Part shown: positions 1 to 14,383 of the stretch, in pieces
How the letters are laid out: each line of letters starts with the position of its first letter
How positions within the stretch are numbered: position 1 is the first letter of the stretch
Source: an uncultured archaeon
GTDB lineage: Archaea > Asgardarchaeota > Thorarchaeia > Thorarchaeales > Thorarchaeaceae
Assembly: GCA_964648855.1 (NCBI GenBank)
Contig: CAZYLT010000001.1
Location: 90,001-122,000 of the forward strand
DNA length: 32,000 nucleotides
Direction: 5' to 3'
Translations under genes and position numbers: made by a program
The notes under the pieces: model-generated
Told to the model about the DNA's origin: nothing
The model's input: only the letters and a program-made list of their open reading frames with translations
Databases searched by the model: none

Positions 1-953
1 ATTGCAAGTTTTTCTTCCAAATCACGAATTTCCTGAACTAAGCGTCTATTAGAGTCCTCTAGTTTGCTCAGACGGCGCTCTTCTTCCTCTATTCGTGCAG
101 TGGTTTTTCCAATCTCCAACTGGTTTTTCTGGAGTGACTGGTTCACTAACTCCAATCTGTCTTGCAGGTCTGAAATGAGAGATTCAACAGTTGAGTATTC
201 TTCTAGAACCGACCCTAGTCCCTCTTCTTTCTCTTCTATCTCTAGTCGAATTTCATCTATTCTAGTATCCAAGTCCTTCAAGAGAGCCCATTTGTGCTCT
301 AGCTCAAGCTCTTTCTCTTCTTTCTGTAACCGTCGTTTCTTCTCTAACCTTTCAATATCATGTCCTAAGAACTCTAGTTCCTTTTCAACGACTTGTGCCT
401 CGCTCTTGGCAGATCCCAGATTTTCACTACTCTGAGATACTCTTGATTCTTCAAGACTTATACGGTTTCGCAGTTCGTCAAGACCGGTTCCTTCCTCTAC
501 CAGCTTTCGAACCTCTACTGGATCCATATTACGAAGAGCATTAATTCGTTCTTGAGGCATGAACACAAGAGGATTATCTGGGTCAAAACCGAGCGTTTCC
601 ACCAATTGATGCATCTCGGATGCCTTCACTCTCCTACCATCAATGTATGCTCGAGGAATGCCATCACGGCTGATTTTTCTTTCAAATCTACGTGATTGCC
701 CATTGACCTTGGCTACGAGTTCTACCGTACCAGAAGAGGCACCATGCCGCACAAAATCACTCCATTTCGAATATCTCCGTTCGCGTTGATTAGAGCCCAA
801 TGCAAATTTGATGGCATGGAAAATCGACGTTTTTCCGGAGCCATTCGGACCGACCACTACTGTAAGACCTTTGTCAAGCTCTACGGTACCCTCGTAGAAT
901 GACAAGAAATTCTTCAGCCGTACTGACTCAATATGCACATCAGTTTGATTCAA
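1..953 (-). CDS. SMC-superfamily ATPase, SMC5/6-like (N-terminal head plus start of coiled coil; runs off the left edge)
   Basis: Not in the ORF track because there is no stop in the window. Manual translation from TTG at 953 (GAGGT RBS upstream): LNQTDVHIESVRLKNFLSF...VVVGPNGSGKTSIFHAIKFALGS (Walker A), NPLVFMPQERI (Q-loop), then a long E/K/L-rich heptad coiled coil. Confidence 0.9.
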   Translation of the reverse strand, partial: MNQTDVHIESVRLKNFLSFYEGTVELDKGLTVVVGPNGSGKTSIFHAIKFALGSNQRERRYSKWSDFVRHGASSGTVELVAKVNGQSRRFERKISRDGIPRAYIDGRRVKASEMHQLVETLGFDPDNPLVFMPQERINALRNMDPVEVRKLVEEGTGLDELRNRISLEESRVSQSSENLGSAKSEAQVVEKELEFLGHDIERLEKKRRLQKEEKELELEHKWALLKDLDTRIDEIRLEIEEKEEGLGSVLEEYSTVESLISDLQDRLELVNQSLQKNQLEIGKTTARIEEEERRLSKLEDSNRRLVQEIRDLEEKLA

Positions 954-966
954 CTCGATCGTAACC

Positions 967-2037
967 TCATCTTCCAAGTAGTCTATCTAAACGATCTTTA
1001 CTTCGCTTTGCTCGTAATAATCTCGTCAGTTTCTCATCAGTAGAGCCAGTCAAAAGAAAGGGGTATTGACTTAGAAACTCACGGTCCTCTGGAGTTAAAG
1101 GAAGGTTGGAGTTCAGAGTTTCTATTACCTGTTGTGTCCGATGAAAATTGTCGCCCACCGCCATTAGGTATAGCTGGTCCAGGAACTCATCAGGATATTC
1201 TTCTGATAAGCGCTCATAAGGGGGATGAAATTCACCTTCAGCTTTCTGAGCAATGTCATCAATCACCTGTTTCCTACCAAGTGGAATGAGTCCGGCCTCC
1301 TCAATCATCTTCTCAAGCTCACCTTTTGTATAATCGCTCTTCTCATCGAGAGGATTTCTAACGAGAAAAGATGCTAGGTGAGTAATGTCTGAGAAAGCCC
1401 AGCCTTCAGTGACTTGAGCTAAAAGCGCAGGGTCAGCTGAAGAACCAGCCAAGACCTTTTCCAAGACTCGAACCCTATCCTCCAGGGTCGGTGATTGGAA
1501 TACATAGGTTTGCTCAAATAGAATTAGCGCATCTCTATCGATGGCCTTTGGATTACTGGTCTGACATATAACCAGTATTTCATCATCGTTCCATGAGCAG
1601 TTCTTCATCTCCAGTGAGAGAACAGCGGCCTGATTCGTATTGCTTTCCGCCAGAAGTTCTAGGCGTTCGATATACAACATTGCTGGCGAGTTCCGCTTTG
1701 CGAATTCGAAACCAGTTCGGATCATTTCAGGCAAACGTTCAGAAGACTCCAACATGTCTTCAAATCTGAATCTTAGGAGCCTGAGAGGAATTTCAGTAGA
1801 TATATGGTGAACAAATGACATGAAGTCAGTTCCCGGAGGGCCGATGAGTAGAGTCTTTCCACTGAATTCGAGCCCAAGTTTCTGAAGTTCGGACTGGTGT
1901 TCTTTGGCCCCCTCTAGTTCCTTCTTTAGCTTCCTCGCGTCCTCTATCACTGACTGTTGCGATATCTCCCTAGGTGGGAGCTCCTCTGGTTCTATAAGGT
2001 CAATGACCTCTGTATAAGTTTCTTCTCTGCTCAACAC
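967..2037 (-). CDS. Degenerate (probably inactive) classical AAA+ protein, PAN/CDC48-like, with C-terminal helical extension
   Basis: KTLLIGPPGTDFM (Walker A lacks GKT), FEFAKRNSPAMLYIERLE (Walker B altered), TSNPKAIDRDALILFE (SRH without Arg fingers), PTLEDRVRVL and TEGWAFSDI lid motifs. Start is probably GTG 2037 or TTG 2034 rather than 2133. Confidence 0.8.
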   Translation of the reverse strand: MLSREETYTEVIDLIEPEELPPREISQQSVIEDARKLKKELEGAKEHQSELQKLGLEFSGKTLLIGPPGTDFMSFVHHISTEIPLRLLRFRFEDMLESSERLPEMIRTGFEFAKRNSPAMLYIERLELLAESNTNQAAVLSLEMKNCSWNDDEILVICQTSNPKAIDRDALILFEQTYVFQSPTLEDRVRVLEKVLAGSSADPALLAQVTEGWAFSDITHLASFLVRNPLDEKSDYTKGELEKMIEEAGLIPLGRKQVIDDIAQKAEGEFHPPYERLSEEYPDEFLDQLYLMAVGDNFHRTQQVIETLNSNLPLTPEDREFLSQYPFLLTGSTDEKLTRLLRAKRSKDRLDRLLGR

Positions 2038-2189
2038 ACTACCCCACTTAGCGGCTTTTCTTAGCAATAATTGAAAGCATAATACTCCTTCGGAATGCAT
2101 GCATTTTCGCGCCTTTCGGCGGATAGAATTCATTCAAGAGCGGTTTCACCGTAGCAACCTTAAGGCTCAATCTTAAATCTGATTTCACG

Positions 2190-3908
2190 GTGTTACCAAC
2201 TGTGACCACTGCTAGTGAAGCCCTGCGAGAAACTGTGTGGAGAGTGATTAGTACAGTTGGCAGTCGGGGGCTCTTTGTACATTCAGATGAACTCGAAATA
2301 AGACATCAGGGTACGACTAGGAAGCGTGCCTCTATATCCAGACTACCATTAATTGTCGGGGCTTGTGTCCTTAATGCGTTGGTTCCTAGGTCCGCTATGC
2401 TGTTGGTGGGGGGACATGGTGGAGGCAAGACTACATTATTGAAAGTGCTTGGTCGTATATTGACTGGCAAGGGGCTTCAAGAGATTGAAGATGGCATGCT
2501 CAGAGGGCACCCTCAACTCACCGAAGAGAAGATGGTTGCAACGCTACGACCTGGGCCGCTGATGAAAGAGGGCGTAGAGGTCGTAGTTTGGCGGAGGTTT
2601 GTCACAGATTTCTGGAAAATTATCGATGAGGTGAATAGGCTAACTCCACATACTCAGAATATTCTGTTGTCAATGCTGGCTGAAGGAGAACTGAAGTATT
2701 ACGATGAAGTGAAGCGCTGTGACGAGTATTGCCTATATGCGACTATGAACCCATCGGATAGTGGGACATTTGACTTGGCACCACCGTTTCTCGATAGATT
2801 TGGTATCGCAGCACCGATTACCATGCCAACAACAGAAGACCTTGAACTAATCCTTTCTTCAAGAGATGAGAAGCTATTTGGATACGACGAATTATGGCAA
2901 GTACCAGCCTTAGCCGAAGAAGAAGACCTGCTTACTATTTGGAACTTGGCTGATAAGATTCCACTATCGGAGAATGCTTCAGAATACTTGCGTTCGATTG
3001 TAAGAGAGTTTGGTGCATGCGTACGCGTAGATAAGAGTCAATCACATAATCTGACAGCTGAAACAGGGCTTTGTGACGGATGTCACTATAACACTGCGAA
3101 GAGCGTCTGTAACAAAGTAATCATACCCTTGAGTGTACGAGCAGCAAAAGACTTGAATCGATATTCGAAGGCAGCTGCATGGTTAGTGGGAGCAACTGAG
3201 GTGAGTGTTGATATTGTGAAGTCTCTTGCACCACTTGTATTCTGGCACAGAACAACCTATTCACAGAATAATCTAGAAGCGTCACCATATTACGGGAATG
3301 CATATGAATTCACGCGCCATTTAGTTGAATTAGCATCTAGTCGATTCGCTCAACGCGAGCCAGCGTTGAAAATCCTCAAACGGCTGAAGACGGGTGAAGC
3401 TAAAGATGATGACCTAGACAAATTGAAAGAGATGGGGAAGAGTGACTTATTGGTCAGGATTGATTATCTTGACCTTGCGAGAGAGCTCAAAAAGAAACGC
3501 TACGCAAGAGTGGTAAAGCGGATTGAAAAGAGCATAGACAGTGCAAAGGTGAAGGAACTTTCCGAGCTAAAACAGTCACTGATGGATGACACGGACTTGC
3601 CAAATCGTGCAATGTTATTGAGGAAAGTTACGGACGTCTTACATTCATTGACCTTATCACAGTTTGAATTGGGATTTGAGCAGTGGCAGGACCTCTGGAC
3701 GACAGTTAGTCTGCGGTATCCGAAGATGACCAGCATCCTCAAGGAAACCCTAAGTCCTCCAAAAAGGAAAGTCCTTCGGACTGAAGATTTGACGCTAGTA
3801 GTTTATGTCACAGGGAGTTCCCCTGATTCTCCTGTGTTTCTGGAAGTTTCTGGTGGACCTGAAGCAATCTCACTGAAAGAAGATATAGAGGAACATCTCA
3901 AAAAATAA
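2190..3908 (+). CDS. MoxR-family AAA+ ATPase with Cys-rich insert and C-terminal extension
   Basis: LLVGGHGGGKTT Walker A, IIDEVNR Walker B, ATMNP sensor 1, PFLDRF, SVRA sensor 2; directly followed by a vWA gene. Confidence 0.85.
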   Translation: MLPTVTTASEALRETVWRVISTVGSRGLFVHSDELEIRHQGTTRKRASISRLPLIVGACVLNALVPRSAMLLVGGHGGGKTTLLKVLGRILTGKGLQEIEDGMLRGHPQLTEEKMVATLRPGPLMKEGVEVVVWRRFVTDFWKIIDEVNRLTPHTQNILLSMLAEGELKYYDEVKRCDEYCLYATMNPSDSGTFDLAPPFLDRFGIAAPITMPTTEDLELILSSRDEKLFGYDELWQVPALAEEEDLLTIWNLADKIPLSENASEYLRSIVREFGACVRVDKSQSHNLTAETGLCDGCHYNTAKSVCNKVIIPLSVRAAKDLNRYSKAAAWLVGATEVSVDIVKSLAPLVFWHRTTYSQNNLEASPYYGNAYEFTRHLVELASSRFAQREPALKILKRLKTGEAKDDDLDKLKEMGKSDLLVRIDYLDLARELKKKRYARVVKRIEKSIDSAKVKELSELKQSLMDDTDLPNRAMLLRKVTDVLHSLTLSQFELGFEQWQDLWTTVSLRYPKMTSILKETLSPPKRKVLRTEDLTLVVYVTGSSPDSPVFLEVSGGPEAISLKEDIEEHLKK

Positions 3909-3923
3909 TGAGTCGAATACGCA

Positions 3924-5618
3924 ATGACGGAATCGAGTCCCATATATGGCGATGTATCGAATCTAGGCAGAATTGCTTCTAGAGCGTGGAATAAAGCAAT
4001 CGCAGATTTCTACCATCCGCCGCTTCCAGACCCGGTCATAGAGCACGATTCTGAAAAGGCGAGTCATTTCTACATCGACTCAGATACGTGGACCGTTCAT
4101 CTCAATACATTTGGAGTGCCTGCTGACCTCTCTCCTGAAGACAAACTCCGCTTCTTGACCTCTATATGCCAGCATGAGATACAACACTATCTGGTATGCC
4201 CCTATGATGGAGTAAGCAACGGGATGATGTTTGCGGCTGCCAGAAGACACGTGGATGATGCATTGGCAATGCTTGCATGCAATCTCTATGCCGATCTCTT
4301 GGTCGATTCAGCCCTCTTGAATAGATTTCCGCATGAAACCCGAATGAGAATTGAGAGTTCGATTATCGATTCGAGTAACAGGATGAGAGAGCATAGTCAC
4401 ATCTGGAAAATAGTAATAGCTACGTACCATGCGGCGTGGGATTTCACAATTCCAGATGGTGTTCAGATTCTTGACAATATAGTGGACGCTGGTCGCAAAA
4501 TTGCGCGTATTAATGGTCAGCTTCACACCGAACGCGAATGGCCAAAGGCAGTGGAAGACATTGCAAAGATTCTTGCAGAATTGCAGGAAAAGGGAAACAA
4601 TCTGTTGCCGAAGGATAAGGAATCTGAAGGAGAAGGAAGCGTCGTTCTTCTTCCAGCTGATCTTGATGCCGTAATGGGTAGTCCGGTTGAGGATAGAAAT
4701 GGGGACAGGGCCAGAAAATGTATTGAGTCTGAGAGACCCTATGGAGAAGAAAAGGAACTGGAAAAGCTTGCAATGGAGGTGCAAAGGAGAAAGGGAACCT
4801 ACAAGGACTTGGAGGGCGTCTATGTGCTATCTGGTGCAGGAATAAAGGGAGGGGATTGGCTTCGATTTTGGTATAGAGCGGGGGCTAGAAGTAGACTCAG
4901 ATTTCAAGTTTCCAGTCGCGTGCGATCAGGCTCAATTCCTATCAGTCAAGACACCTGGAGGCTTGGTGACCCCCTAGAAGAACTAGACCTAGTCCAGTCA
5001 CTACAAACCTTCCCAGTCATAGTCCCAAACATGTCCACAAGAAAATGGATGAAGAGCTACACCTTTTCATCAAGAAACGAGAGCGCAATGCCGGACTTGC
5101 TCATCGTCATCGACTCGAGTGGCTCTATGACTTGGTCATTCGGAAGAGATAGAGTTTCTGGTGCGTTCCATCTCGCCCTATTGTCGGCTTTTGCTGCAGT
5201 TGATTTTGCACATCGTCAAGGGAAGAAATTGGGAGTAATAAATTTCTCAGGATCATCTCGCACCTGTGACTGGACGAGGGATAGACGGAGCATAGAAAGA
5301 ACGCTAATGCAGTACCAAGGTAGTGGAACTGTTATGCCAGTTAGAGAAATCAAGGGAATGTGCAGGAAGGCAGAATCAGAAAACTTGATTCTAGTCATTA
5401 CTGATGCACAGATTTCTAATTGGAATCCTTTTGTCAAGACTATCAAAACATTATCACGAAGGGGGCACAGTTTCTTCATCTTTCATATAGGGTCAGAAAA
5501 ATCGAGCAATGTCCATGAAAAGCTTGAGAAAGCCGGTGGTACAGTGATACAAGTGAAATCGCCAGACGACCTATTCGACTTGGTAGTTAGACAAGTAAGA
5601 GGTGTCTATTCTACCTAG
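3924..5618 (+). CDS. HExxH metallopeptidase-like plus vWA (MIDAS) domain protein, DUF2201-like MoxR partner
   Basis: HEIQH followed by NLYADLLVD in the N-terminal half; IVIDSSGSM, GSGT and VITDAQ MIDAS motifs in the C-terminal half; 15 bp after the MoxR stop. Confidence 0.85.
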   Translation: MTESSPIYGDVSNLGRIASRAWNKAIADFYHPPLPDPVIEHDSEKASHFYIDSDTWTVHLNTFGVPADLSPEDKLRFLTSICQHEIQHYLVCPYDGVSNGMMFAAARRHVDDALAMLACNLYADLLVDSALLNRFPHETRMRIESSIIDSSNRMREHSHIWKIVIATYHAAWDFTIPDGVQILDNIVDAGRKIARINGQLHTEREWPKAVEDIAKILAELQEKGNNLLPKDKESEGEGSVVLLPADLDAVMGSPVEDRNGDRARKCIESERPYGEEKELEKLAMEVQRRKGTYKDLEGVYVLSGAGIKGGDWLRFWYRAGARSRLRFQVSSRVRSGSIPISQDTWRLGDPLEELDLVQSLQTFPVIVPNMSTRKWMKSYTFSSRNESAMPDLLIVIDSSGSMTWSFGRDRVSGAFHLALLSAFAAVDFAHRQGKKLGVINFSGSSRTCDWTRDRRSIERTLMQYQGSGTVMPVREIKGMCRKAESENLILVITDAQISNWNPFVKTIKTLSRRGHSFFIFHIGSEKSSNVHEKLEKAGGTVIQVKSPDDLFDLVVRQVRGVYST

Positions 5619-5637: not shown

Positions 5638-5657
5638 CCCAAAGTTTTATCACTTTG
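5638..5657 (+). promoter_or_regulatory. Putative BRE/TATA promoter of the nfn operon inside a CAAAGT-N6-ACTTTG inverted repeat
   Basis: CCCAAAG-TTTTATCA about 70-80 bp upstream of the ATG at 5724. Confidence 0.45.
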
Positions 5658-5723
5658 AGAGGTAGGCGTCGTTTTTGCCTACAAATCGGGAGTCGACCCT
5701 ATTCGGTTTCAGAAAGTGATGTT

Positions 5724-6566
5724 ATGTATGAAATTGTAAAGAAAAGAATACTCAATCCAGTTACAAAAATGATGGTCGTCAAAGCACCAGATGTGGCTCG
5801 GGTGTGTAAACCAGGACAATTTGTTATCATCAGGGTTAATGAAACTGGTGAACGGATTCCACTAACAGTTGCAAACTTTGACCGGGAGAAGGGCACAGTC
5901 ACAATCGTCTATCAAGAGGTCGGTAAAACAACCAAGCTGTTAGGTACGCTGGACGAAGGAGATGGAATTCTTGACTTCGTTGGCCCTTTGGGAAAACCCA
6001 CCCATACTGAAAAGCAGTATGGAACTGTAGTTGCTATTGGCGGAGGGTGCGGTTCAGCTATAGCATATCCAGTTGCTCGGGCTTTCAAGGAGGCCGGAAA
6101 CTACCTCATCACAATTAATGGAGCACGAACAATGGATTTACTGCTCTACGAGGATGAGATGGAAGATATTAGTGATGAGAAGTACATCACAACAGATGAC
6201 GGTTCGTGTGGAGTGCATGGATTTGTAACCACGGTTCTTGGAGACCTCATTGAAAAGGGCAGAAAAATAGATCTCGTTTTCGCTGTTGGGCCAGTTCCAA
6301 TGATGAAATTCGTTTCAAAGACAACCGAGAAGGCTGGAATTCCAACGATTGTTAGCCTGAATAGCATAATGGTGGATGGCACGGGTATGTGCGGTGCATG
6401 TAGAGTTCACGTAGGCGGACAGATGAAGTTCGCTTGCGTTGATGGACCTGAGTTCGACGGTCACGAGGTGGATTACGATGAACTGATGAGTAGGTTGAAT
6501 GCCTACAAAAAATACGAAGTGATTTCGCTGCAAAAATGGGAAAAGGAACACGGAGGGGAGCAGTAA
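5724..6566 (+). CDS. nfnA: Electron-bifurcating NADH-dependent reduced ferredoxin:NADP+ oxidoreductase small subunit (NfnA/SudB)
   Basis: PGQFVI, ERIPLT, GPLGKP, GPVPMMK, and MVDGTGMCGACRV...ACVDGPEF [2Fe-2S] motif with Asp ligand. Start reassigned to ATG 5724. Confidence 0.93.
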   Translation: MYEIVKKRILNPVTKMMVVKAPDVARVCKPGQFVIIRVNETGERIPLTVANFDREKGTVTIVYQEVGKTTKLLGTLDEGDGILDFVGPLGKPTHTEKQYGTVVAIGGGCGSAIAYPVARAFKEAGNYLITINGARTMDLLLYEDEMEDISDEKYITTDDGSCGVHGFVTTVLGDLIEKGRKIDLVFAVGPVPMMKFVSKTTEKAGIPTIVSLNSIMVDGTGMCGACRVHVGGQMKFACVDGPEFDGHEVDYDELMSRLNAYKKYEVISLQKWEKEHGGEQ

Positions 6567-7999
6567 TGGCAGAAGAGAAGAAACAGAGAAAGCGAAAACC
6601 CCCGACAAAGAAAGTTCCAATGCCTGAACAAAACCCGAATGTTAGAAGAAGTAATTTCGAAGAAGTTGCCTTGGGATACACTGCTGAACAGGCCATGGAA
6701 GAGGCAAGTAAATGCATACAGTGCCGTAATCCACGTTGTGTTGGAGGCTGTCCAGTTGATGTCCCGATAAAGGAATTTGTTGAACTAATTCGAGAAGGCA
6801 AATTCATGGAAGCCGCAGCAAAAATCAAGGAAACCAATAGTCTTCCCGCAATCTGCGGTAGAGTATGCCCACAGGAGACTCAATGTGAGCAAGAGTGCAT
6901 TTACGGGATTCGAAACGACCCGATAGCTATTGGACGATTAGAACGATTTGTTGCTGACCACGCACGTGCGAAAGGTGAGTCACTCCCAGAGGTTGCAGAG
7001 AAGAATGGCATGAAAGTAGCTGTGATAGGCTCAGGTCCTGCTGGACTTGCTTGTTCAGGCGACCTAATCAAGCTGGGGTATGATGTCACCATCTTTGAAG
7101 CATTCCACAAAGCAGGAGGCGTGCTCCAGTACGGAATACCACAGTTCCGCCTTCCAAAGGAAATCGTTGACGCAGAGGTTGAATATCTAGAAAGACTCGG
7201 AGTGGAGGTACGCTACAATTTCGTTGTGGGAAAAATCAGAACTGTTAAGGAATTGATGGAGGAAGATGGCTATGATGCAGTCTTTATTGGCTCGGGCGCA
7301 GGTGCCCCCAACTTCCTTCGAATCAAAGGAATGAACTTGGTGGATGTATTCTCAGCAAATGAATTACTCACGAGAACCAATCTTATGAAGGGATACAAGT
7401 TCCCCGAATATGACACGCCGGTACGGATTGGAAACAGAGTTGCGGTTATAGGAGGAGGCAATGTTGCAATGGACGCAGCAAGAACCTCTCTCAGACTCGG
7501 GGCAAAAAAGGTCTATGTCATCTATAGACGAGCAAGAGACCAGATGCCTGCTAGAGAAGAAGAAATTCACCACGCAGAGGAAGAAGGAATCATCTTTGAA
7601 TTGCTGAGAAATCCTGTCGAGATTATTGGCGACGAGAAGGGCAATGTAATTGGCATGGAATGCATCAAGATGGAACTCGGAGAACCAGACGAGTCGGGCA
7701 GAAAGCGTCCCATCTCCATCGAGGGCTCGGAATTCGTGATGGATGTAGATACAGTGGTGGTTGCTATAGGCAATTCGCCCAATCCAATAATTCCATCAAC
7801 CACCCCTGATCTTGAGGTATCCAAGTGGGGAACAATCCTCGTTGACGAAGAAACAGGGATGACTAGTGTGCCGGGAGTATTTGCAGGTGGGGACATCGTT
7901 ACAGGAGCGGCAACAGTCATCAGTGCTATGGGCGCCGGAAAGTTTGCAGCAAGGGGTATCCACTCCTATCTCACAAATGGTGAATCAGAAGGGGATTAG
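6566..7999 (+). CDS. nfnB: NfnB/SudA large subunit (GltD-like flavo-iron-sulfur protein)
   Basis: CIQCRNPRCVGGCP, CGRVCPQETQCEQEC, GSGPAG, GGGNVAMDAAR, FAGGDIVTGAATV. TAATG stop/start overlap with nfnA. Confidence 0.93.
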   Translation: MAEEKKQRKRKPPTKKVPMPEQNPNVRRSNFEEVALGYTAEQAMEEASKCIQCRNPRCVGGCPVDVPIKEFVELIREGKFMEAAAKIKETNSLPAICGRVCPQETQCEQECIYGIRNDPIAIGRLERFVADHARAKGESLPEVAEKNGMKVAVIGSGPAGLACSGDLIKLGYDVTIFEAFHKAGGVLQYGIPQFRLPKEIVDAEVEYLERLGVEVRYNFVVGKIRTVKELMEEDGYDAVFIGSGAGAPNFLRIKGMNLVDVFSANELLTRTNLMKGYKFPEYDTPVRIGNRVAVIGGGNVAMDAARTSLRLGAKKVYVIYRRARDQMPAREEEIHHAEEEGIIFELLRNPVEIIGDEKGNVIGMECIKMELGEPDESGRKRPISIEGSEFVMDVDTVVVAIGNSPNPIIPSTTPDLEVSKWGTILVDEETGMTSVPGVFAGGDIVTGAATVISAMGAGKFAARGIHSYLTNGESEGD

Positions 8000-13028: not shown

Positions 13029-14072
13029 TCACCCTAGAGCCTTGATTTTGCGCCTATATTTCGCATACACTGCGTAGCTCACGTATTTCTTTCGCGACAT
13101 GAAGTCATCCACGGTGGGCACTTCTCCTCGATGGTTTTCTATTTCATCTTCAACACGAATTGAGAATGCGTCACTTCCAGCACCGGATCCGTAAGATACC
13201 ATGAAGATTCGTGAACCGGGATCAGCAATGTCAAGAACCCTAGCAAGACCTATCATTGCAGAACCAGAGTAGGTATTTCCAATCTGACGTACTACAAGAC
13301 TATCCTCAAGCTTCTCACTCGGCACGCCTAATTGCTTGCCCATGGAAACTGGGAATTTACCATTTGGCATGTGAAAGATGAAGTAGTCAAAATCATCGAC
13401 CGTGGTTTTGGTTCGTTTGAAGAGTAATTTCGCACCTTCACTCACATGCCTGAAATATGCTGGCTCTCCAGTGAATCGCGCGCCATGACTAGGAAAGTCC
13501 TCGCCTTCGCGGCGCCAGAAGTCAGGGGTGTCTGTTGTGAAAGATGTTGTGTCCTCTATGGTTGCAATTGGCTTGTCTTGACCTATGATATAGGCCGCCC
13601 CACCCGCAGCAGCCGAGTACTCAAGTGCGTCGCCAGGTCTACCTTGAGCAGTATCTGCTCCTATTGCAAGACCTAAATCAATCATTCCTGAGTCAACGAG
13701 ACCCATGTTGGTCTGCATTGCAGCAGTTCCTGCCTTGCAGGCGAACTCGAAATCAGCAGCAGTAAGATTTGTTGTGCACTCGATTGCTTCAGCAACAATA
13801 GTCCCCGTTGGTTTCACAGCATAAGGGTGAGACTCTGAACCTACATATATAGCTCCAATTCGTTTTGCATCAATTCGAGCATATTTCACAGCGTTTCTTG
13901 CGGCCTCGACAGAAATAGTTGCTACATCCTCATCAGGGCCTGGAACAGATTTTTCAAACACACCCAAACCGTGGGCTAGCTTTTCTCCATCTTCTCCCCA
14001 GACCTCAGCAATGCTTTCAGTCTTGATTCTGTAGCGAGGTATGTAAACACCATAACCAATAATTCCAACCAT
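13029..14072 (-). CDS. Hydroxymethylglutaryl-CoA synthase (archaeal)
   Basis: [44 protein letters not shown]. Confidence 0.96.
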
Positions 14073-14383
14073 TCACGAATCTCTCCATTTTCTTTCCACT
14101 ACGGGAAATGTCGAAGTTATATACGTCGTTCTTCTACTCTATCTGGCGGGCGATGTCCCCTATATAGAGCTTTTCATAGCTGGAGCCGTGTGTTTACGTC
14201 TTTTTGCGAATCTCGACTCCGCTATTACCTATTGACGACAGACTTACAGGTGAGACGGTCGTATATATTGCTGACGACGTGAATAAGATAGCATATTGTC
14301 GAACTAGGCAGGAAATGAGTGTATCCATCAAAACATGCTGCTTGAGTGGCGTAAGATAATAAGCAATCAGTCCCATACACAAG

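Follow-up and report, generated by a model that had tools for sequence, protein, structure and literature searches.

In an uncultured Thorarchaeaceae archaeon, the operon of a second SMC complex is headed by the gene for an AAA+ protein with eroded catalytic motifs (here called the dead AAA+ protein or pseudo-AAA), and a MoxR-vWA gene pair stands divergently beside it. The start of the operon and the pair lie at the left end of the 32,000-nucleotide stretch analyzed here, the window, which comprises positions 90,001 to 122,000 of the forward strand of contig CAZYLT010000001.1 (GenBank assembly GCA_964648855.1; G000:C1:90001-122000 in our numbering, the source genome G000 being 3.1 Mb in 62 contigs). 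The cluster consists of seven genes in two units and not of four genes (Table 1). Unit 1, on the minus strand, runs from the dead AAA+ gene through an SMC paralogue, a kleisin-like gene, and a KITE gene to a Zn-ribbon/winged-helix gene. Unit 2, on the plus strand, encodes a MoxR-type AAA+ motor and an adaptor protein with a zincin-like HExxH motif and a vWA domain bearing a metal ion-dependent adhesion site (MIDAS). Because its gene lies directly upstream of the SMC gene in each Asgard locus that was analyzed and its product ends in a very rare C-terminal domain, the dead AAA+ protein is most likely a real, unreported, and ancient pseudo-ATPase subunit of the second SMC complex. Publications already cover the SMC-kleisin-kite core of such operons; the pseudo-AAA gene at the head and the MoxR-vWA/HExxH neighbor that recurs beside it are undescribed in the literature searched.

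A preliminary description made from the letters alone had placed four genes in two divergent pairs at positions 1 to 5618 of the window, and the open reading frames (ORFs) and domain matches agree with it. Its SMC-type ATPase was also correctly recognized; that the gene is cut by the window edge, which leaves only its 5' part inside, could not be seen from those letters. The complete gene encodes 1,130 amino acids, and three further operon genes follow downstream. These were found in the 12 kb to the left of the window (L001), where it had been proposed to look for kleisin, KITE, or effector genes: the kleisin-like and KITE genes are there, and no nuclease or known effector gene was found in or beside the cluster. 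Throughout, library matches refer to Pfam and NCBIfam, defense matches to PADLOC, and folds to AlphaFold 2 (AF2) models compared with Foldseek.

A pseudo-ATPase gene precedes the SMC gene

The dead AAA+ protein keeps the AAA alpha/beta core and the AAA_lid_3 lid (PF00004 and PF17862 are matched on family members). Its Walker A motif reads GPPGTDF, lacking the lysine, its Walker B motif reads YIER, and there is no arginine finger or RxxR motif. The Walker A lysine is lost in 15/15 aligned members of the family. All catalytic motifs had previously been described as eroded, which holds for Walker A, Walker B, and the arginine finger and is slightly overstated for sensor 1, where TSNP is partly retained. 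The family profile matches Cdc48/p97 chains with an E value of 1e-44, and the AF2 model (predicted local distance difference test [pLDDT], 84) retrieves the AAA domains of FtsH, Vps4, PAN, and p97 in Foldseek. Judged by its sequence, the protein is a pseudo-ATPase of the classical Cdc48/FtsH/Vps4 clade of AAA+ proteins and not an active member of it.

Conservation is highest in a helical domain of about 85 residues at the C-terminus of the protein. A profile of this domain recovered 110 clusters among 1.84 billion representative proteins, nearly always with the domain at the C-terminus. The named clusters belong to Promethearchaeota and to one metagenome-assembled genome (MAG) labeled "Bathyarchaeota" (L120), which also encodes an Asgard-type MoxR and whose label may be wrong. 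In Jordarchaeales-type lineages the N-terminal core of the dead AAA+ protein is shorter and more eroded, and the AAA lid and tail are kept. A word-index search with the dead AAA+ alignment was saturated with Thorarchaeota orthologues and uninformative on other phyla.

The dead AAA+ gene was found directly upstream of the SMC paralogue in 19/19 loci cut from relatives and in about 50 further Thorarchaeota contigs. The same holds for all 10 of the loci from two families (f9 and f24) in which the MoxR-vWA pair is elsewhere, and an exact-sequence look-up placed the gene before SMC in the remote metagenomic or MAG members L118, L119, and L120 as well. The linkage spans six Asgard families, and the ends of the two genes often overlap or nearly touch. 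Because these junctions are so tight, translational coupling of the dead AAA+ and SMC genes is suggested. A partnership of the pseudo-AAA with the SMC protein is highly probable on this evidence of gene order and conservation. In one relative (G093, L081:13422-14260, plus strand) two overlapping ORFs (13422-13772 and 13742-14260) stand in place of a single dead AAA+ gene, perhaps through a frameshift or an assembly error.

The second SMC system and its kleisin-like and KITE proteins

By its matches and motifs, the paralogue is assigned to the SMC protein family. The full protein matches SMC_N over residues 16 to 1112 (E value, 4e-41), AAA_23, and, weakly, SMC_hinge at residues 503 to 616. The Walker A (GPNGSGKT), Q-loop (MPQER), signature (SGGERS), and Walker B (SLDEID) motifs are complete, and the PDB matches are to SMC heads, with E values down to 1e-36. 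On TIGR02169, the archaeal SMC equivalog model, the protein scores 319 bits against a cut-off of 729. Since a separate canonical Smc-ScpA-ScpB operon is present on contig C2 of the same genome (Pfam ScpA, 2.8e-9; ScpB, 9.5e-33), the cluster holds the second SMC system of this genome.

The 171-amino-acid protein of unit 1 gives weak helix-turn-helix matches by sequence. Its AF2 model, built from a 12-sequence alignment (pLDDT, 83), consists of two consecutive winged-helix domains and retrieves ScpB, MAGE-G1/Nse3, MAGE-A3, JetB, and one SelB fragment at a Foldseek E value of ≤1e-3, with MukE and Nse1/Nse3 just below. ScpB aligns with the model over its full length (Z score, 11.4 to 11.6), and Nse1 aligns with a Z score of 10.1 and a root mean square deviation of 7.4. 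On the strength of this model, the protein is assigned to the KITE proteins. The gene for a 210-amino-acid protein lies between the SMC and KITE genes in all loci. When compared by hhalign with the ScpA of its own genome, this protein aligns end to end and collinearly over 183 columns (E value, 1.2e-4; probability, 55%), and its PDB matches include three chains of the ScpA C-terminal winged helix, at weak E values of 0.16 to 0.7. From these ScpA alignments and the position of the gene, we regard the protein as kleisin-like. Neither it nor the KITE protein is matched by the Pfam ScpA and ScpB models.

In Thorarchaeota and in a genome of a second family (f2), the KITE gene is followed by the last gene of unit 1, which encodes the Zn-ribbon/winged-helix protein (44 to 73% identity); this last gene was not found in the operons of families f7, f8, f9, and f24. 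Its product may be a lineage-specific extra subunit or regulator.

Relationship to SMC5/6 and to prokaryotic SMC systems

Operons of SMC5/6-related SMC, kleisin, and kite genes have been described in TACK and Asgard archaea (van Hooff, Raas, Tromer, and Eme, bioRxiv 10.1101/2024.01.07.573240), and a second source on archaeal SMC5/6-related complexes is available (Yoshinaga and Inagaki 2021, PMC8665677). The former study reports, for a Thorarchaeia genome, two SMC5/6-related SMCs, one Nse1/3-related kite, and a second kite that is ScpB-like, with no Nse4-related kleisin detected; its tree shows no clean separation of the two Thorarchaeia SMCs, and its example operons come from Thermoplasmatota, Bathyarchaeia, and Caldarchaeales, none of them from Asgard archaea. 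The present cluster is like the published operons in that a second SMC gene exists beside canonical Smc-ScpAB and has its own kleisin-like and kite genes in the order SMC-kleisin-kite. It differs from them in the dead AAA+ gene, which stands first in the operon in all loci analyzed, and in the MoxR-vWA pair that frequently adjoins it. Neither publication mentions an AAA, MoxR, or vWA gene, and the combination of genes, which the preliminary description had not recognized as described, is indeed absent from the literature searched.

Putative membership of the paralogue in the SMC5/6 clade fits by elimination, with the work of van Hooff et al. as its basis. Similarity to structures in the PDB does not discriminate: the scores were 130 bits for prokaryotic Smc, 79 for SMC2, 62 for SMC5, and 58 for SMC6, and attempts to tell SMC5/6 from condensin-type proteins in this way gave no distinction for the whole protein, the N-terminal head, or the C-terminal 56 residues. 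The QFIIFTP sequence in place of the H-loop histidine was also rejected as a marker of SMC5/6, as the canonical Smc of Pyrococcus likewise lacks the H-loop histidine. The KITE fold is slightly nearer to ScpB than to Nse1, and a search of the whole genome with the Pfam models Nse4_C, MAGE, and SMC_Nse1 gave no match at the operon. Eukaryotic SMC5/6 with Nse5/6 offers a parallel: its SMC complex is likewise built on KITE proteins and has a further regulatory subunit that is not an SMC protein, which for the present cluster is proposed from its genes; the Nse4_C, MAGE, and Nse1 models, as said, miss the operon. Nse5 and Nse6 are helical-repeat proteins and not AAA folds. Compared with Cdc48/p97, the extra subunit of the cluster appears to descend from the Cdc48-type AAA family and is predicted to be unable to hydrolyze ATP.

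Smc-ScpA-ScpB has the same architecture as that predicted for the core of unit 1, where the SMC protein has an ABC head and a hinge, the putative kleisin is about 210 amino acids long and would end in a winged helix, and the kite consists of tandem winged helices; the kite model of the cluster aligns best with ScpB. The differences are that the true Smc-ScpA-ScpB operon stands apart in the same genome, that the proteins of the cluster miss the ScpA and ScpB models, and that the SMC protein falls far below the equivalog cut-off given above.

SMC-family ATPases with accessory genes are found also in Wadjet (JetABCD/MksBEFG) and Lamassu, and Wadjet has a kleisin and a kite. The cluster could then be imagined as an SMC-type system against plasmids or viruses, with the MoxR-vWA-peptidase pair as its effector or regulator. 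The SMC head gives generic PADLOC matches to the LmuB, Mad3, and JetC models, the dead AAA+ protein matches IetA weakly, and JetB, from one of the KITE-containing SMC systems, is among the fold matches of the KITE protein. Yet the MoxR, vWA, kleisin-like, and KITE proteins have no PADLOC match, and neither a JetD-like nuclease nor a Lamassu (LmuA) effector is encoded in or beside the cluster. Moreover, 49/59 genomes sampled from the family have the cluster, its syntenic site is stable, and its divergence tracks taxonomy, which fits a vertically inherited core function on the chromosome and not a mobile island. A defense role is unlikely on this evidence, and we give it a very small chance.

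The MoxR-like ATPase and the HExxH/vWA protein

The MoxR-like protein was described as intact at the outset, and it does have an intact Walker A (GGHGGGKT) and Walker B (IIDE), followed by a C-terminal extension of about 220 amino acids. Its AAA_5/AAA_3 core and lid, its Walker motifs, and the neighboring vWA gene, which follows MoxR in all loci (here within 15 bp), assign it to the MoxR family of AAA+ proteins. The best solved relatives of its profile are a MoxR (2r44; E value, 3.7e-14), midasin, and BchI/ChlI. Across five families the GGHGGGKT motif, the DE of Walker B, and residues C277, C295, C298, H299, and C307 are invariant, and the Cys/His cluster at residues 277 to 307 is a possible zinc site. 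Zinc sites are not usual in MoxR proteins.

The partner protein, likewise correctly described as combining HExxH and vWA, has its HExxH domain at the N-terminus and its vWA domain at the C-terminus, with a conserved region between them. Its HExxHY..CPYD motif is invariant and its MIDAS (DSSGS...T...D) complete; among 13 sequences drawn from five families, the residues H84, E85, H88, Y89, P93, D95, D397, S399, S401, T469, and D494 do not vary. VWA_2 is matched with an E value of 5e-5, just under its cut-off, and together with the MIDAS residues this identifies a vWA domain in the 564-amino-acid protein at the level of sequence. The N-terminal HExxH domain has no sequence relative in Pfam, NCBIfam, or the PDB; the profile of the whole protein matched the PDB in its vWA part alone, and weakly. 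When the first 380 residues were compared by features with the ESM Atlas, the results were confined to clusters without names and one weak lead, to CobT, and the metallopeptidase-vWA family PF13203/PF09967 (DUF2201) does not match the protein. The invariant motif allows cleavage by the HExxH domain as a putative peptidase.

An intact AAA+ protein of the MoxR/chelatase clade followed by a MIDAS-vWA gene is found likewise in RavA-ViaA, CbbQ-CbbO, NorQ-NorD, and CoxD-CoxE, in BchI/BchD, and in midasin (Rea1). The present pair is distinguished from them by its extras, as both proteins are about 570 amino acids long and carry a Cys/His cluster and long tail (MoxR) or an HExxH domain (vWA). In the BchD subunit of Mg-chelatase, a dead domain is fused to vWA, whereas here the inactive AAA protein belongs to the Cdc48 clade and is encoded by a separate gene tied to SMC. 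In one f2 genome (G025, L015:13396-16890, minus strand) a gene for a 1,164-amino-acid protein on the opposite strand splits MoxR from vWA; it is the only such case seen.

Linkage of the two units across Asgard archaea

In a family-level profile of 251 Asgard genomes, both units occur in f1 (the Thorarchaeota family), f2, f7 (which includes a Jordarchaeales MAG), f8, f9, and f24; f17 and f20 have MoxR only, and 20 families have neither. The MoxR gene and the SMC paralogue are each present in 49/59 genomes of f1. They lie 1.1 to 2.4 kb apart on one contig in 44 of the 48 genomes that have both, the gap holding the dead AAA+ gene, and on different contigs in the remaining 4. The divergent order is kept in f2. 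Families f7 and f8 have a collinear order of MoxR, vWA, dead AAA+, SMC, kleisin, and KITE genes with 4-bp overlaps, and this order was also seen in independent metagenome assemblies, where the hits of the scan were nearly identical to loci already known. Adjacency is thus recorded in four family-level lineages (f1, f2, f7, and f8), in two gene orders and with no other shared neighbor, and it persists although SMC identity to the protein of the window is only 26 to 29%. In a MoxR tree (quick search, midpoint root, support by SH-aLRT only), the unlinked lineages (f9, f24, and G252) form one well-supported clade nested among the linked ones, which suggests that the linkage is ancestral and was inverted once and broken once.

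That the MoxR-vWA pair acts on the SMC complex is plausible from this comparison of genomes, the chances being about evenly balanced. Alternatively, only unit 1 would be a functional module, and MoxR-vWA would be an independent general remodeling or chaperone pair with another client, adjacent to unit 1 through inherited gene order; this is quite possible, if short of probable. Several findings count against the functional link and in favor of the two units being independent. The units are adjacent in none of the 45 f9 and f24 genomes that have both, and in a one-contig genome (G214) they are 480 kb apart, MoxR-vWA lying among GatC, peroxiredoxin, and SufBD genes, a housekeeping context that is conserved. 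Each unit is also found without the other: MoxR and vWA are missing from three genomes that are 99 to 100% complete (G099, G165, and G178) and from G123, all of which keep the dead AAA-SMC-kleisin-KITE operon, and in f17 and f20, where MoxR-vWA adjoins an all-alpha protein, no SMC paralogue was found at an E value of 1e-40. One Thorarchaeota assembly (L036) has two TauE genes beside MoxR in place of the dead AAA+ gene. The Thorarchaeota region is syntenic throughout, and an oxidoreductase pair of PyrK-like and GltD-like genes follows vWA in 50/64 loci; since this unrelated pair is also kept beside vWA, adjacency within Thorarchaeota is weak evidence for a functional link. Mere inheritance of gene order is in turn opposed by the persistence of adjacency at so low an SMC identity with no other neighbor in common, by its survival through an inversion, by the single operon with 4-bp overlaps that the four genes form in f7 and f8, and by the 20 families that lack this MoxR as well as the SMC paralogue.

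The MoxR-vWA pair is a separable unit that is not obligatory for unit 1, and, as each unit can occur alone, it is at most an accessory and not part of the core. The preliminary description had proposed that the four genes could form one module, in which MoxR-vWA might assemble, unload, or cleave an SMC complex. For the dead AAA+ and SMC genes, a common module is strongly supported by gene neighborhood; for MoxR-vWA the support is incomplete, with adjacency in four lineages, separation in f9 and f24, and each unit also occurring by itself. The unlinked and independent distribution that was named as evidence against such a module holds for some lineages of the phylum but not for the others.

The same oxidoreductase pair admits another explanation for the position of MoxR-vWA, namely, that it is a chaperone for cofactor insertion into the PyrK-like/GltD-like enzyme, as NorQ/NorD and CoxD/CoxE are for theirs. 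MoxR-vWA pairs are known metal-cofactor chaperones, and the median distance from vWA to the oxidoreductase pair in the 50 Thorarchaeota loci is about 100 bp. The pair does not keep one orientation to vWA, however (same strand in 35 loci and opposite in 15), and it lies beside MoxR-vWA in no lineage outside Thorarchaeota. We consider this explanation very improbable.

The all-alpha protein of f17 and f20 has 440 to 480 amino acids and no Pfam match, and its gene precedes MoxR-vWA on the same strand, with a threonyl-tRNA synthetase gene further upstream in f17. It has no homologue in G000, and a comparison with the dead AAA+ protein, of which it might have been a diverged form, found no relationship. 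It is a further candidate client for MoxR-vWA proteins of this family. In G032, the contig ends were considered as a possible junction of MoxR with the SMC operon; this was rejected, all f9 loci holding MoxR-vWA in one conserved housekeeping context.

Possible role of the two units at the SMC ring

As a stoichiometric, nonenzymatic subunit of the SMC holocomplex, the dead AAA+ protein would use the conserved helical domain at its C-terminus to regulate the complex or to provide a docking platform. In MoxR-vWA pairs such as CbbQ-CbbO, NorQ-NorD, and RavA-ViaA and in midasin, the client is bound at an acidic residue by the MIDAS and remodeled by the AAA+ ring. Where the pair described here shares an operon with the SMC genes, its most economical client would be the SMC holocomplex or the pseudo-AAA subunit of that complex. 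In the lineages with linked units, a MoxR hexamer might use the MIDAS of the vWA protein to grip an acidic residue of a subunit of the SMC complex and then remodel the complex, so that the ring is loaded, released, or dismantled, with possible cleavage by the HExxH domain. The proposal in full, that a dedicated ATP-driven MoxR hexamer with a zincin/vWA adaptor loads, releases, or proteolytically opens an SMC5/6-related ring in which a Cdc48-derived pseudo-ATPase is the fourth core subunit and docking site, is speculative and, taken as a whole, rather unlikely.

The cluster bears on the ways in which archaeal SMC rings are loaded, regulated, and removed and on the origin of the accessory subunits of eukaryotic SMC5/6. 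It provides two candidate SMC regulators in those prokaryotes that are most closely related to eukaryotes: an Asgard-restricted pseudo-ATPase, encoded with the second SMC complex in all loci analyzed, and a MoxR/vWA/HExxH pair that stays beside the second SMC operon across deep lineages. If the pair does act on the ring, it would represent a prokaryotic forerunner or analogue of eukaryotic loaders and releasers, of separase-type cleavage, or of p97-type extraction. If its link to SMC is only positional, the pseudo-AAA subunit would still add an unreported component to a published complex.

Gene layout and spacing

Table 1. Positions of the genes of the cluster and of related features. Plain numbers are window positions; L001 is the 12 kb to the left of the window.
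Feature	Position	Strand	Matches and remarks
SMC paralogue, 5' part (~317-325 codons)	1..977 (ORF 3..977)	-	SMC_N, AAA_23; runs off left window end
SMC paralogue, full gene, 1130 aa	G000:C1:87588-90977	-	
Dead AAA+ gene, 388 aa	967..2133	-	PF00004 AAA 5.7e-7; likely start GTG 2037
Divergent intergenic spacer	2038..2189		Read from sequence, 152 bp
MoxR-like AAA+ ATPase, 572 aa	2190..3908	+	AAA_5, AAA_3, AAA_lid_2
HExxH + vWA putative adaptor protein, 564 aa	3924..5618	+	C-terminal vWA: VWA_2/VWA
Kleisin-like gene, 210 aa	L001:8942-9574	-	Left of window; position and ScpA alignment
KITE gene (predicted), 171 aa	L001:8439-8954	-	Left of window; tandem winged-helix AF2 model
Zn-ribbon/winged-helix gene, 123 aa	L001:8013-8384 = G000:C1:86013-86384	-	~3.6 kb left of window; TFIIB-type Zn-ribbon and winged helix
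PyrK-like gene and GltD-like gene	5655-7999	+	DHODB Fe-S, NAD-binding (PyrK-like); Fer4_20, Pyr_redox_2 (GltD-like)
All-alpha protein of f17/f20	L112:5911-7248	-	
All-alpha protein of f17/f20	L113:11470-12921	-	
All-alpha protein of f17/f20	L115:10777-12099	-	
All-alpha protein of f17/f20	L116:3352-4671	+	

The spacings given in the preliminary description (15 bp, 13 bp, and about 150 bp) depend in part on the choice of start codon. MoxR and vWA are separated by exactly 15 bp (3909-3923). The gap between the dead AAA+ and SMC genes is 13 bp if SMC starts at TTG 953 and becomes an 11-bp overlap with TTG 977; the former start is likely because a GAGGT lies about 10 nucleotides upstream of it and the alignments of orthologues begin there. 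The divergent spacer is 152 bp long if the dead AAA+ gene starts at GTG 2037, where its orthologues start, and 56 bp with ATG 2133. At 2048-2090 on the minus strand, in the divergent spacer (or, if the AAA ORF has its long form, in the 5' end of that ORF), a perfect AAGGAG is followed after 4 nucleotides by the ATG of an out-of-frame mini-ORF of 10 codons, which may be a chance occurrence.

Downstream of SMC, beyond the Zn-ribbon/winged-helix gene, a gene for a CxxCxxCC protein lies on the same strand. Next to the canonical Smc-ScpA-ScpB operon on contig C2 are a Roadblock/LC7-like gene (L111:9713-10078, minus strand) and a Sec23/24-like gene (L111:10182-11846, plus strand) with trunk, beta-sandwich, and zinc finger domains, both of which encode eukaryote-signature proteins of Asgard archaea.

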